IMG/VR virus record: IMGVR_UViG_3300042395_000266
Span: 1 to 55,906 of that record
DNA from: a virus
Taxonomy: Duplodnaviria; Caudoviricetes
Strand: one strand, 5' to 3'
DNA length: 55,906 nucleotides
Shown here: one piece after another, positions 38,463 through 41,176 of the stretch
Layout: every line of letters begins with the position of its first letter
How positions within the stretch are numbered: position 1 is the stretch's first letter
The notes under the pieces: generated by a model
The model's database searches: none
Seen by the model: only the letters and a program-made list of their open reading frames with translations
Told to the model about the DNA's origin: nothing
Made by a program: the position numbers and the translations under genes

Positions 38463-38747
38463 ATGAACATCGACCAATTCGTCCGCACTGGTTCTCAATG
38501 CGGAGACGCCGAAATCGCGCGGCTGCGGCTTCAATCGGCGCACGCGGAAATGGAACTGCTCCGCACAGCCATCCGCCGCCTCGCGGATCAGGACGCCACG
38601 CTGTCGGTGTGCGATGGTGCGGTGACGGTGACGATGGACGCCACGCTTACCGACGAGGAGCGTGAGGCGGTGAAGTTGGCGGCTGAATGGTTCGCAGCGG
38701 TTCCCCTTGGCGACACGCTCCGCGCGTTGCTGGGGCGGCTGAAGTGA
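38463..38747 (+). CDS. Hypothetical protein (LT.EEREA motif)
   Basis: LTDEEREAV...LRALLGRL. Confidence 0.6.
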   Translation: MNIDQFVRTGSQCGDAEIARLRLQSAHAEMELLRTAIRRLADQDATLSVCDGAVTVTMDATLTDEEREAVKLAAEWFAAVPLGDTLRALLGRLK

Positions 38748-38785
38748 GAACACGGAAGATCAACAGCCGCGAACAAAGGAGGCGG
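38745..38785 (-). mobile_element. Degenerate attC half-site (R', L' and stem only)
   Basis: TGAGAAC-ACGGAA-GATCAAC; 18 bp identical to the site at 39708; no matching L''/R''. Confidence 0.6.
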
Positions 38786-38790
38786 CAAAC

Positions 38791-39060
38791 ATGAGGGACG
38801 TTGTGACACGCATCAACCGATGGCTGGAGGGCGAGGACGCTGCCGACGCAGACGAGACGCTGCATGACGCCCGCGACGAGATCGTCGCCCTTCGGGCGTT
38901 GCTGACGCGGCAGAGCGAGTCTGCGAGCGAGGCGGTGCGACTCATGGCAGACAACGCCAGCCGATACGGATTTCTGCTCGGCGGGCTGGAGATGGTCGCG
39001 GCCGGGCATACGACGGCGGATAAGGTGCTGGCGGCGGCGAAGGCAAAATACGGTGACTGA
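38791..39060 (+). CDS. Cassette-associated hypothetical protein
   Basis: SD AGGAGG inside the remnant stem; stop lies in the next R' box. Confidence 0.7.
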   Translation: MRDVVTRINRWLEGEDAADADETLHDARDEIVALRALLTRQSESASEAVRLMADNASRYGFLLGGLEMVAAGHTTADKVLAAAKAKYGD

Positions 39061-39147
39061 GAACACGCAGGATCAGGAGCGGCGAACAATGAGCGATGAC
39101 AACACCAAAGAGCCGGCCGAGCCGTCTCCTGCATCCGCTGGTTATGC
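39058..39147 (-). mobile_element. Integron attC site 1 (90 bp)
   Basis: Minus strand: R'' GCATAAC-5-L'' GATGCAGG...L' CCTGATC-6-R' GTTCTCA. Confidence 0.85.
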
Positions 39148-39400
39148 CGATGCTCGCCTAGTCGAGCGGGCGTTCAGAGAAGTGCTAGAGAGCGTAAACG
39201 AGGTGAGCCGCGCTCACGCCATGAACTACGCGGGGCTGCTGCACTCGCTGCTGGAAAAAGGCGTGATTACAGCGGAAGAACTCGAAGCAGGGCGAGAGAA
39301 AGCAAGGCCGGCAGTTGACAAGCATTTTGGGCCGACACCGGACGAAAGGAAGGCGAAGGATTTAGTTGAACTGCTTCGGGGACTCAAGGGCAAGGCATAA
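39089..39400 (+). CDS. Cassette gene, hypothetical (starts inside attC 1)
   Basis: SD AGGAG 39075-39079; TAA inside R' of attC 2; LLEKGVIT.EE motif. Confidence 0.7.
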   Translation: MSDDNTKEPAEPSPASAGYADARLVERAFREVLESVNEVSRAHAMNYAGLLHSLLEKGVITAEELEAGREKARPAVDKHFGPTPDERKAKDLVELLRGLKGKA

Positions 39401-39443
39401 CGCCAGCGATCAGCGGCTCGTCCGCTGCATCGCGTGGTTCTGT
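39395..39443 (-). mobile_element. Integron attC site 2 (49 bp)
   Basis: Minus strand: ACAGAAC-CACGC-GATGCAGC-GGACGAGCC-GCTGATC-GCTGGC-GTTATGC. Confidence 0.85.
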
Positions 39444-39462
39444 GGGCGTGGAGGATCAGACC

Positions 39463-39705
39463 GTGAAATGGATCAGCGTGAAAAAGCAATTGCCTGAGTG
39501 GGGTGAGCAAGTCATCGTCGCTCACCGTCGCTACGATTGGTCAAACGCCCGGCACAAGTGGACACGGCTCAAAAGGCTGGGCGTGAAGCCAGCCACGTTT
39601 TGGAGGCAGGACGAGAACGGGCCGCGATTTACTGATGGTGAAGATGTTGTGGCCGAGCCGGTGGCATGGATGCCGCTCCCGGCCCCGCCGAGCGACGGCA
39701 AGTAG
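39463..39705 (+). CDS. Cassette gene, DUF551-like
   Basis: SD GGAGG; KWISVKKQLPE...VAWMPLPAPP. Confidence 0.75.
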   Translation: MKWISVKKQLPEWGEQVIVAHRRYDWSNARHKWTRLKRLGVKPATFWRQDENGPRFTDGEDVVAEPVAWMPLPAPPSDGK

Positions 39706-39707
39706 CC

Positions 39708-39797
39708 ACAGAACACGGAAGATCAACGGCGGCGGACGCAAGGCATGACAACACCAAACGACATTGACCCGCCGTCCGTTGCATCGCTTGGTTCTGC
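39708..39797 (-). mobile_element. Integron attC site 3 (90 bp)
   Basis: Minus strand: GCAGAAC-CAAGC-GATGCAAC...GTTGATC-TTCCGT-GTTCTGT. Confidence 0.85.
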
Positions 39798-39820
39798 TGC
39801 GTTGGCCTCGGAGATGGGCA

Positions 39821-40696
39821 ATGCCTGAGCACCACTTCCTCAATCTCGGCGCTGGCGTCCAATCGACGGCGCTCTACCTCTTGAGTATCGACGGCGACGA
39901 GCCGGAAGTGCCGCGATTCGATGCCGCCATCTTCGCGGACACGCAGGAGGAGCCGGACGAGGTATACCGGCACCTGGAATGGCTGGAAAAGCAGGGCGGC
40001 CCGCCGATTGTGAGGACGACAGCGGGGCGGCTGGGCGCTGCCTTGGAGCAAGGCAGCGATGCGTCTGGCAATACCCGCACTGACGGCGGCCACTACGTTT
40101 CGATCCCGGCATTCACGGTGCATCCGCAGACCGGACAGAAGGGCATCATCCAGCGGCAATGCACAGCCGACTTCAAGGTCAAGCCGATTGAGCGACTGAT
40201 CCGCGAGCACTGCGGCGGGCAGTTCGGCAGGCCGCTGCCGAAAGAGGTCATCGTTCACCAATACATGGGGCTGTCGTTCGACGAGCCGAAGCGGGTCATC
40301 CGCGTCAAGGAACGATTCCTCGCCAAGCCGTCAAACTGGAAGGTTCATTTCCCGCTCTGGGAGATGCAATGGGATCGCGGCGACTGCAAATCGTACCTAC
40401 GCGAGCGTATGCCATACGAGGTGCCACGCTCGGCCTGCGTGTTCTGCCCGTTCAAGTCAGACGAGGAGTGGCGTCGGCTGAAGGCCGACGATCCCAAGGG
40501 CTGGGAGCGTGCCGTGCACATCGACAAGGTGTGCCGCACCGGCACCGGGCTGGACGCTCACCGATACTTGCACAAGGCGTGCGTGCCGCTGGACGAGGTT
40601 GACCTACGGCCCGCCGACGAGAAGAGCGGGCAGATGAACATGTTCCGGCACCTGCGCGGGTTTCAGGACGAGTGCGAAGGGTACTGCGGGAACTAG
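39821..40696 (+). CDS. Cassette gene, PAPS-reductase-like adenine nucleotide alpha-hydrolase
   Basis: LGAGVQST PP-loop, FADT, RQCT.DFK..PI, RSACVFCPF, terminal ECEGYC. Confidence 0.8.
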   Translation: MPEHHFLNLGAGVQSTALYLLSIDGDEPEVPRFDAAIFADTQEEPDEVYRHLEWLEKQGGPPIVRTTAGRLGAALEQGSDASGNTRTDGGHYVSIPAFTVHPQTGQKGIIQRQCTADFKVKPIERLIREHCGGQFGRPLPKEVIVHQYMGLSFDEPKRVIRVKERFLAKPSNWKVHFPLWEMQWDRGDCKSYLRERMPYEVPRSACVFCPFKSDEEWRRLKADDPKGWERAVHIDKVCRTGTGLDAHRYLHKACVPLDEVDLRPADEKSGQMNMFRHLRGFQDECEGYCGN

Positions 40697-40784
40697 CAGA
40701 ACGCCAGCGATCAGCGGCATCGAACACAGGAGATTGACACATGAGCGACGTTGATGAGATGTCCGCTGCATCGCGTGGTTCTGC
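40696..40784 (-). mobile_element. Integron attC site 4 (89 bp)
   Basis: Minus strand: GCAGAAC-CACGC-GATGCAGC...GCTGATC-GCTGGC-GTTCTGC. Confidence 0.85.
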
Positions 40785-40802
40785 AAACGGAGGAGACAAG
40801 AC

Positions 40803-41162
40803 GTGAGCGATAGTTGGTTCGACACGCTGGTCGCAAAGTGGATCGAACTTTGCGAACTTGCCAATATCGAAGTGGACAACATTGAACGGGCGAGGTCGTT
40901 CATTGACGGCGGCGCATACGAGTCGAAGGAATGGACGAAGCCGCCGTCGCTGCAAGCCTTGCAGGCGTGGTATCTCGCGGCCAGAGATTTGTCGGAGCAG
41001 CAGGATGACGGCGACGAACTGATGAGCAGCGAACTGTGGCGGATTTTGACGCTCACGGAGAAGGCGTACCAAATGGGCCTTGCCGATGCGGCGGCCAGAA
41101 CGGCGGATAACGCGCCGAGAATTCACGTCGAACGGCCGCGAAACAGCATGGCCCGTGATTAA
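40803..41162 (+). CDS. Cassette-associated hypothetical protein
   Basis: SD GGAGG; TAA inside the half-site R'. Confidence 0.65.
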   Translation: MSDSWFDTLVAKWIELCELANIEVDNIERARSFIDGGAYESKEWTKPPSLQALQAWYLAARDLSEQQDDGDELMSSELWRILTLTEKAYQMGLADAAARTADNAPRIHVERPRNSMARD

Positions 41163-41176
41163 CACGCAGGATAAGG
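41157..41176 (-). mobile_element. Degenerate attC half-site
   Basis: GATTAAC-ACGCAG-GATAAGG; shares AACACGCAGGAT with attC 1. Confidence 0.5.

Follow-up and report, generated by a model that had tools for sequence, protein, structure and literature searches.

The 55,906-base IMG/VR record IMGVR_UViG_3300042395_000266, analysed here at its whole length (the window), carries at 38745-41180 a row of small genes joined through repeated palindromes. We read this region as a reversed, integrase-less array of integron-type cassettes, that is, a cluster of attC sites, in the complete genome of a tailed phage, and give this reading a probability of about 0.72. By reversed we mean that the genes run opposite to the top strand of the attC-type sites that precede them.

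The record is rated 99% complete, has a G+C content of 64%, and encodes small and large terminase, portal, S78 prohead protease, HK97-type capsid and tail proteins, together with UvrD-like and SNF2 helicases, a primase-polymerase, methylases and glycosyltransferases. Given these structural and replication genes, the window is a tailed phage and not a stray fragment of a bacterial integron. The public runs that contain the stretch are all lake-water metagenomes.

The array and its sites

A first-pass annotation made from the letters alone had proposed four imperfect palindromes as attC sites, at 39058-39147, 39395-39443, 39708-39797 and 40696-40784, and all four lie at exactly these positions (E1 to E4 below). 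It had called them intergenic, which holds for their place at gene junctions and fails for their content, since they are partly coding: the loop and right arm of E1 begin ORF (open reading frame) 39089-39400, and E3 and E4 contain leader ORFs. The array, with two relic half-sites at its ends, reads as follows; aa stands for amino acids and PAPS for 3'-phosphoadenosine 5'-phosphosulfate.

38745-38804, minus strand: E0, truncated long-form site at the left array end, with the left R box TGAGAAC, the left arm and a loop containing AGGAGG and ATG
38751-39063, plus strand: unit Z, ORF 38791-39060 (89 aa, no family; GC by codon position 0.71/0.47/0.79), with E1 at its right and the relic E0 at its left
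39058-39147, minus strand as attC top strand: E1, attC-type site of 90 bp, its loop containing AGGAG and the ATG of the next gene at 39089
39064-39400, plus strand: cassette A, site core and ORF 39089-39400 (103 aa), ending in GCATAA, which includes the TAA stop
39395-39443, minus strand: E2, minimal attC-type site of 49 bp with a 5-nt loop
39401-39713, plus strand: cassette B, site core and a DUF551 gene (ORF 39442-39705)
39708-39797, minus strand: E3, attC-type site of 90 bp, with a 27-aa leader ORF (39745-39828) that begins in the loop
39714-40701, plus strand: cassette C, site core, leader ORF and a PAPS-reductase-like gene (39821-40696, 291 aa)
40696-40784, minus strand: E4, attC-type site of 89 bp, with a 21-aa leader ORF (40741-40806)
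40702-41162, plus strand: unit D, site core, leader ORF and ORF 40803-41162 (119 aa, no family)
41157-41180, minus strand: E5, possible left-half relic at the right array end, GATTAAC ACGCAG GATAAGG, recognised by eye alone

On the minus strand, each of the four sites has the attC geometry that had been ascribed to it, namely R'' (xxxxAAC), 5 nt, GAT-G-CAxxG, loop, CxxTGATC, 6 nt and R' (GTTxxxx). The extra base in L'' relative to L' is confirmed as well, as an arm of 3+1+5 nt facing a complementary arm of 8 nt. On the plus strand, the left half thus reads xxxxAAC, 6 nt, GATCA(R)CGG, and the right half CCG(Y)TGCATC, 5 nt, GTTxxxx. Left halves (xxxxAAC, 6 nt, GATCA) stand with 0-1 mismatch at 38748, 39061, 39398, 39711 and 40699; when up to two mismatches were allowed, the search returned 15 matches versus 10.2 expected, with clustering in these five alone. 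Right halves (TGCATC, 4 nt, GGTT) are exact at 39130, 39426, 39780 and 40767, and up to one mismatch gave 6 matches versus 3.0 expected, an extra exact match lying at 19184 on the minus strand.

Profiles for nhmmer, built solely from copies in other phages, recover the four sites with E-values of 4e-18 (E1), 7e-18 (E2), 3e-16 (E3) and 1.4e-18 (E4). They also match E0 (E = 1.3e-6) over positions 1-60 of about 90; this site has a left half with 0 mismatches, no right arm and no fold. E5 was undetected by these profiles and likewise has no fold. Nothing comparable to the array sites was found in the rest of the window genome. In the early region, the short-form profile gave a weak left-half match at 51647-51670 on the plus strand (E = 0.024; GAACGTCCGCGATCAGATC), which may be a chance hit or a lone relic.

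In DNA folds, the plus strand of the sites makes a single long stem, interrupted on the 3' arm by two bulges of one base each. E2 has an energy of -13.8 kcal/mol (z = -2.9 versus shuffles), E3 of -17.5 (z = -2.3) and E4 of -18.0 (z = -1.6); E1, at -12.3 kcal/mol and z = -0.27, folds as a single strand no better than shuffles.

The cargo is phage-typical, as had been supposed. The cassette B product matches Pfam PF04448 (DUF551) at E = 3.5e-07, the likely start of its gene being the GTG at 39463 that follows GGAGGA, and the cassette C product matches the PAPS-reductase-like phrog_424 at E = 8.9e-40. The cassette A protein has no relative among IMG/VR sequences.

Kinship with attC sites of integrons

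Three lines of comparison bear on whether these palindromes are attC sites. The first is a geometry scan that is blind to sequence. In the window it finds three sites on the minus strand (E1, with 0 mismatches, E3 and E4) and 0 on the plus strand, where shuffles give a mean of 0.86 on both strands combined; its length floor lies above the 49 bp of E2, which is therefore outside the scan and has the same layout. In four class 1 integron regions from plasmids, used for calibration, the scan found 6 classical attC, all on the cassette strand (those after aadB, aadA2, aac(6')-IIa, cmlA6, aadA15 and aac(6')-Ib3), and missed the known sites of blaIMP-1 and aac(6')-Il. In a Planctomycetota array (genome G001) it returned 20 sites versus 1 on the opposite strand. 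On the gene strand, classical sites read R''-AAC, 5 nt, L'' with one base added after the third position, L', 6 nt and GTT-R'. The corresponding interior asymmetry of attC, with spacers of 5 and 6 nt and unpaired bases on the L'' arm only, is found on the minus strand in four of four window sites.

The second is an attC covariance model of our own, built from 53 bacterial sites, which matches the window at the four sites only and on the minus strand, as the first-pass annotation had predicted of such a search. E2 scores 48.3 bits (E = 1.6e-12) versus 10.1 bits on the plus strand, E4 31.3 bits (E = 5e-07), E3 25.4 bits and E1 14.2 bits (E = 0.15, weak); the pattern that selected the training sites came from the window itself, so that likeness is built into these scores and only the orientation, or strand asymmetry, is independent.

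The third is the company that the bacterial relatives keep. The L-box arm core and R boxes at identical spacing occur on at least 120 bacterial contigs from many phyla, with canonical boxes such as GCCTAAC and GTTAGAC. In four arrays from three Planctomycetota genomes, sites with the L core adjoin TIGR02249 integrases scoring 419-485 bits, that of G001 being 52% identical to IntI1, and all four of these intI-linked arrays, in the canonical reading, run away from intI. Across the G001 array, 7 of 9 intervals have their longest frame on the strand opposite to the pattern strand. As a separate observation, the two integrases of Engelhardtia mirabilis (G004; 4330658-4331584 and 230639-231571) are each co-oriented with their own attC array, and those of G001 and G003 are divergent. 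An integrase co-oriented with its array is an arrangement known for some lineages.

Cassette ends

In an integron array, R' is a hybrid, and the start of a cassette (TTxxxx) complements that cassette's own R''. For three consecutive units of the window the end pairs are indeed exact complements, GTTATGC/GCATAAC, GTTCTGT/ACAGAAC and GTTCTGC/GCAGAAC, as had been noted at first sight, and the cassette limits derived from them (39064-39400, 39401-39713 and 39714-40701) are those that cleavage of the plus strand at AA↓C would give. The right end of unit D, GATTAAC, shows no complement to its own GTTCTGC.

The same relation holds beyond the window. Among neighbouring pairs of phage sites in this family, 89 of 129 show a perfect complement at the four variable R-box bases, versus 40 of 229 within one site and 14.5% of random pairs; the test is blind to which of the two orientations applies. 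Complementarity across the gene and not within the site is the opposite of the pattern expected if the hairpins functioned as hairpins only. This bears directly on the possibility that the palindromes are RNA signals (terminators, processing signals or translation control) that resemble attC by chance, a view which their location at gene junctions on the transcribed strand, the ribosome site and ATG in the long-form loops, and the overlap of leader ORFs with the next start codon would all suit. We regard it as already disfavoured and highly improbable: the R boxes of a single site pair at about the random level, the kinship with sites adjoining IntI is base for base, and an Rfam scan of 37500-42500 returned 5 matches, all at E >= 2 and below the gathering score.

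Orientation and crossover point

The claim that the genes lie opposite to the attC top strand held throughout the array, every gene being on the plus strand and every site on the minus strand, with the site at the gene's 5' end. This orientation rests on four tests, which are the strand of classical attC, the direction of bacterial arrays relative to intI, the strand preferred by the covariance model, and the linkage of the site core to the downstream gene. Gene direction was judged by a test of GC content by codon phase, validated on 8 window genes; it replaced open-frame length, which is too ambiguous a guide in GC-rich DNA. Among 108 viral sites, genes run along the pattern strand (plus in the window) by 37 versus 4 upstream and 36 versus 8 downstream, the rest being ambiguous. 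For bacterial genes at 130 sites, the counts are 8 along versus 32 against upstream and 17 versus 29 downstream, the rest again ambiguous.

Linkage was then read from unique sites of the long form. Where the upstream genes differ and the downstream gene is the same (n = 16), loop identity is 0.82 versus a baseline of 0.52; where the upstream gene is the same and the downstream genes differ (n = 25), it is 0.53, and the left R box is common to 72%. The size class of the site tracks the downstream gene 41 to 6. The site core therefore travels with the downstream gene, so that each attC precedes its own gene, and the main break falls between the left R box and the spacer, that is, at AA↓C on the plus strand, which is G↓TT of R' on the minus strand, the point at which integron integrases cut (Qi et al. 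2023). Thus the expectation that gene content in relatives would break at the GTT boxes was borne out for the main break, at the left R box of long forms, and not for every case, as some breakpoints lie within sites. A version of this analysis without deduplication, in which the core was tied to neither neighbour and one degenerate-box group to the upstream gene, was superseded after deduplication and a split by size.

Coding loops and leader frames

A distinct feature of the long form is that its loop is used for translation. Of 111 unique long sites, 78 carry a loop ATG whose frame continues across the right arm and on into a long ORF; 11 others have a short leader and 21 no in-frame start. 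The fused stretch supplies roughly the first 14-20 residues of the cassette protein (e.g. M.D.NT..AEPSPASAGS), as in cassette A, where the loop and right arm of E1 code for residues 1-20 (MSDDNTKEPAEPSPASAGYA). Both loop types occur in the window: E1 is fused to ORF 39089-39400, and the leaders of E3 and E4 terminate across the next start codon, in E3 across the ATG (ATGCCTGA) and in E4 at GTGA. Such a loop or leader fits a site that belongs to the downstream gene, and a loop that supplies the start explains how a hairpin can stand ahead of a gene without blocking its translation. An analysis of the loop alignment by codon position was dropped, as the ATG falls in several different columns.

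The shared N-terminus of the long forms is acidic, ends in S-x-A-S-x-G-S, and is joined to unrelated cassette proteins in those 78 cases. It may serve as a tag, a targeting signal or a cleavage site.

The site family in other phages

The site pattern recurs in IMG/VR, with at least 136 matches on at least 119 contigs. A looser detector yields 229 sites in viral loci and the window, with 61 arrays of two or more, and the longest runs in whole records hold 13 sites in a row. Two size classes dominate the 209 unique sites, 83 being of 49-50 bp and 99 of 89-90 bp. The 49-bp site has no megablast match in the 50,697 phage records of INPHARED, and a distant search of cultured phages with 36500-44000 gave only methylase and GDP-mannose dehydratase pieces among the matches listed. 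In Logan contigs, which are short, so that the parts of the stretch they leave uncovered are uninformative, summed depth rises about ten-fold at the sites (window 39337-39503 and 40673-40839; 857 versus about 74 in run X6). Therefore the site sequence is common to many genomes in the same lakes.

In this family the left R box is also the stop of the preceding gene, as in TGAGAAC (38745-38751), GCATAAC (39395-39401) and GATTAAC (41157-41163). Of 197 unique sites, 172 have an upstream frame of at least 40 codons that ends in the left R box (102 sites) or at most 6 nt ahead of it (70), with TGAGAAC alone making up 69.

Single units are shared between otherwise different loci. In locus L265, sharing with the window is limited to 39710-40702, which is cassette C, at 97.8% identity. 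The PAPS-reductase-like gene also occurs without any site at no fewer than 17 other loci, with 70-95% protein identity and similarity running from the ATG to the stop codon, and the DUF551 gene is found without sites in locus L315 (95% identical over window 39464-39689). At L265 6874-6905, 3' of the PAPS-reductase cassette, GCAGAAC is followed by CAGTG TTTCTGC with no hairpin between, which looks like an emptied or collapsed junction at an array end.

As for the neighbourhood of the array, a GDP-mannose 4,6-dehydratase (PF16363, E = 6.9e-135) and unannotated ORFs lie immediately 3' of it (window 41403-45108, plus strand). Glycosyltransferase and FkbM-methyltransferase families are present in the window according to the Pfam scan (position unassigned). 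The region 41403-45108 may be a sugar-modification module.

Recombinase and host

The window has no intI, in agreement with the first-pass annotation: its 55.9-kb, 99%-complete genome gives no TIGR02249 match. With four sites inside 1.73 kb, the array is by definition a CALIN (cluster of attC sites lacking integron integrases), and it is not a complete integron, neither an IntI nor an attI-like site having been identified. No IntI was found by tblastn in the fetched viral loci, and none of 40 site-bearing viral records (18 of them at 90% completeness or more) has one above the cut-off. The sole tyrosine recombinase of the window (26461-27372, minus strand, 303 aa; PF00589, E = 3e-14) is Xer-like, with E = 1.6e-16 for NF040815 and just 15.5 bits for the integron-integrase model. 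Among the 23 families listed in a Pfam scan of 43 window ORFs there is no HUH-type single-strand DNA enzyme.

These data raise the question of whether the sites, though genuine recombination sites, are served by an enzyme of the phage and not by IntI, so that the system would be merely integron-like. The Xer-like recombinase is the candidate. It is the window's one tyrosine recombinase, its Xer-type matches are weak, and strong homologues (E < 1e-40) occur in 17 of 28 site-bearing records. The lack of IntI in the 40 records would also fit, as would the R boxes, GTTCT in the phages versus GTTAG/GTTGG in bacteria, a difference that a separate enzyme might need. Several facts speak to the contrary. 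Homologues of the recombinase are also present in 4 of 11 site-less relatives, and among near-complete site-bearing genomes it is weakly matched in two (G011, 98% complete, E = 1.1e-7; G022, 100%, E = 5.4e-14) and missing from a third (G024, 92%). The gene lies some 11 kb from the window array, and the site core is identical base for base to that of bacterial sites linked to IntI. The Xer-like recombinase was accordingly set aside as a dedicated enzyme, as it has no specific association with the sites, and we consider a phage-encoded enzyme unlikely. In L315 (2502-3522), the site-less DUF551 gene adjoins a homologue of this recombinase.

Since these phages have no IntI and the Xer-like recombinase is not specifically associated with the sites, the simplest reading is that an IntI of the host may act on them in trans. 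Under the array reading, the mobile unit would open, on the plus strand, with C and a 6-nt spacer, followed by the L' arm, a loop and the L'' arm, which has two unpaired bases; after a 5-nt spacer and GTTxxxx would come the gene and a closing xxxxAA, the last usually containing or abutting the stop codon; in the 89-90-bp form, the loop would give the ribosome site and ATG. When single-stranded, the plus strand, which is also the coding strand, would form a hairpin equivalent to the recombinogenic bottom strand of attC, and an integron-type tyrosine recombinase would cut the left R box at AA↓C. Exchange between two such sites could then remove, insert or swap a unit, the product being resolved by replication, and recombination of this kind may be continuing.

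A planctomycete IntI as the acting enzyme is weakly backed. Bins hold the phage-type site on four short contigs (1.3-14.7 kb) assigned to Pirellulales, Beijerinckiaceae, Methylocystis and an unclassified bin, which is weak evidence for a host. In a lake Pirellulales bin, the phage-type copy lies on a 7.4-kb contig, and two IntI genes lie on other contigs. Beside one of these IntI genes the geometry scan finds a 91-bp site with GGCGAAC/GTTCGCC boxes.

Weighing the array reading

Several observations, besides the likeness built into the covariance model, weigh against our interpretation. First, the R boxes are unusual. The attC consensus is RYYYAAC/GTTRRRY, and the window boxes (GTTCTGY, GTTATGC) retain only the GTT/AAC of GTTRRRY; their variable bases (GCAG, ACAG, GCAT and CTGC, CTGT, ATGC) fall outside RYYY/RRRY, with the bacterial relatives inside the consensus. 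The departure of the phage boxes from RYYYAAC may stem from the second role of the R box, as stop codon for the gene before it. Second, attC sites range from 57 to 141 bp, and E2, at 49 bp, is under this size; E1, E3 and E4 are of 89-90 bp. Third, units Z and D each have an intact site on one flank only.

Fourth, the core is only partly linked to the downstream gene (right spacer, spR, 0.85; loop, 0.82; left spacer, spL, 0.68). Short-form sites are linked to both neighbours, and in a group with degenerate left boxes one core is followed by any of five genes, a pattern that indicates the right R box. The window and L265 have the same cassette with different loops, and gene D follows a short-form site in L324 and a long-form site in the window. 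From these swaps of loop and core, it follows that some exchange also takes place inside sites.

Fifth, joints that suggest movement of single units have short sides. Logan lake-water contigs join 39061 to 39399 through three shared letters (AAC), the form without cassette A, in three of four runs, and in one run each 38748 to 39399 (without Z and A) and 39707 to 40697 (without C); the shorter sides of these joints are just 21-28 letters long, unreliable in metagenomes, and may come from related phages rather than from excision. Finally, on the host side, the phage-type short site is absent from 401 sampled Planctomycetota genomes, and the two contigs of the Pirellulales bin that carry IntI genes yield no site with the covariance model.

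Some of these points would be explained if the array were an inactive leftover, once derived from an integron or built by IntI, whose 49-90-bp repeats now serve as short homologies for general or phage recombination. Breakpoints within sites (the loop replacement between the window and L265; the long versus short core before gene D), the relic half-sites at the array flanks and the partial core-downstream linkage are what such decay might leave. It would fit poorly, however, with phage-type cargo in the direction of phage transcription, and with the 49-bp and leader-encoding forms, which in bins occur on the four short contigs only and in 0 of the 401 Planctomycetota genomes. Furthermore, pairs with the same upstream gene break exactly between the left R box, shared in 72%, and the spacer, which is at baseline. 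The complementary ends of 89 of 129 pairs need some process that maintains or restores them, and homologous recombination within the core would not generate such ends. We thus think this explanation quite unlikely, and prefer the array of integron-type cassettes.

Implications

To our knowledge, integrons are regarded as bacterial devices, and phages have so far been only rare carriers of a few ordinary attC sites. The present family is a large and homogeneous one borne by phages, in arrays of up to 13 sites, and its design is unseen in bacterial arrays: the site stands before the gene, the loop is coding, and a stop codon lies within the R box. It is possible, at somewhat less than even odds, that the tailed phages which infect freshwater and soil bacteria run a reversed-cassette pool of their own, distinct from the bacterial pool. 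In such a pool, attC would double as a translation start and a shared N-terminal tag, and the R box as the previous stop; units would be traded between unrelated phages during infection, through the host's IntI or an unrecognised phage enzyme. The reversal would silence phage cassettes captured by a bacterial integron, and bacterial cassettes would be likewise silent in the phage.

If the host integrase does move these units, this would explain how small accessory genes, DNA-modification genes being one class of them, hop between unrelated phages with base-pair precision, and would tie phage mosaicism to the host's stress-induced integrase. In addition, the 49-bp site would offer a natural minimal substrate for integron biochemistry and a natural test of strand choice.

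Comparison with known systems

The closest relatives of the sites are in the chromosomal integron arrays of Planctomycetota and other environmental bacteria. The arms GATGCAGCGG ... CCGCTGATC (top strand), the spacers of 5 and 6 nt and the two unpaired bases are the same in both. The bacterial sites differ in having R boxes of the GCCTAAC/GTTAGRC type, a GC-rich inner stem and a length of 55-64 bp, with genes that precede the site on the top strand. The phage sites, in contrast, have xxAGAAC/GTTCTxx boxes and no inner stem or else a coding loop, with genes on the bottom strand, downstream of the site.

With the classical attC of class 1 integrons, the phage sites share the layout, R''-AAC, 5 nt, an L'' with the extra base after position three, L', 6 nt and GTT-R', and little sequence likeness beyond AAC/GTT, although the L'' of cmlA6 (GCTGCAGCC) resembles the phage GATGCAGCGG. 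The classical site lies 3' of its gene, on the same strand.

For the leaders, ORF-11 in attI1 offers a parallel, being a short ORF in an att site that drives translation of cassettes without start signals of their own. In both cases, a small frame in a recombination site feeds ribosomes onward, in E3 and E4 by stop/start overlap. In the phages, by contrast, each cassette has the start of the frame within its own attC loop, and the frame is mostly fused to the cassette protein (78 of 111).

A reversed, leader-encoding family was not found in the searched literature, which did not cover subscription journals. Clusters of attC sites in phages are already published. According to the main text of Qi, Rajabal, Ghaly, Tetu and Gillings (Qi et al. 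2023, Front Microbiol 14:1091391; PMC9892861), a screen of 10,705 phage genomes found integron parts in 21, with 17 CALINs; IntI1 recombined five of the six phage attC assayed into attI1, crossing over at G↓TT with a preference for the bottom strand, and the CALINs of TJE1 and PH101 are oriented like bacterial arrays. That main text does not contain the words 'opposite', 'antisense' or 'Planctomycet'; a reversed case among the 21 phages is possible. As in the CALINs described there, two or more attC-type sites bound small genes in the window, without intI. The differences, as far as that text goes, are that the survey covered cultured or deposited genomes, whereas the present family is homogeneous, spread over at least 119 uncultured contigs and found in none of the INPHARED records; that its genes are reversed; and that its sites fall into classes of 49-50 and 89-90 bp, the long class encoding a protein start. 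What sets the array of the window apart from the published phage clusters is thus its reversed genes, its membership of an abundant phage-specific family, the 49-bp form and the coding loops.

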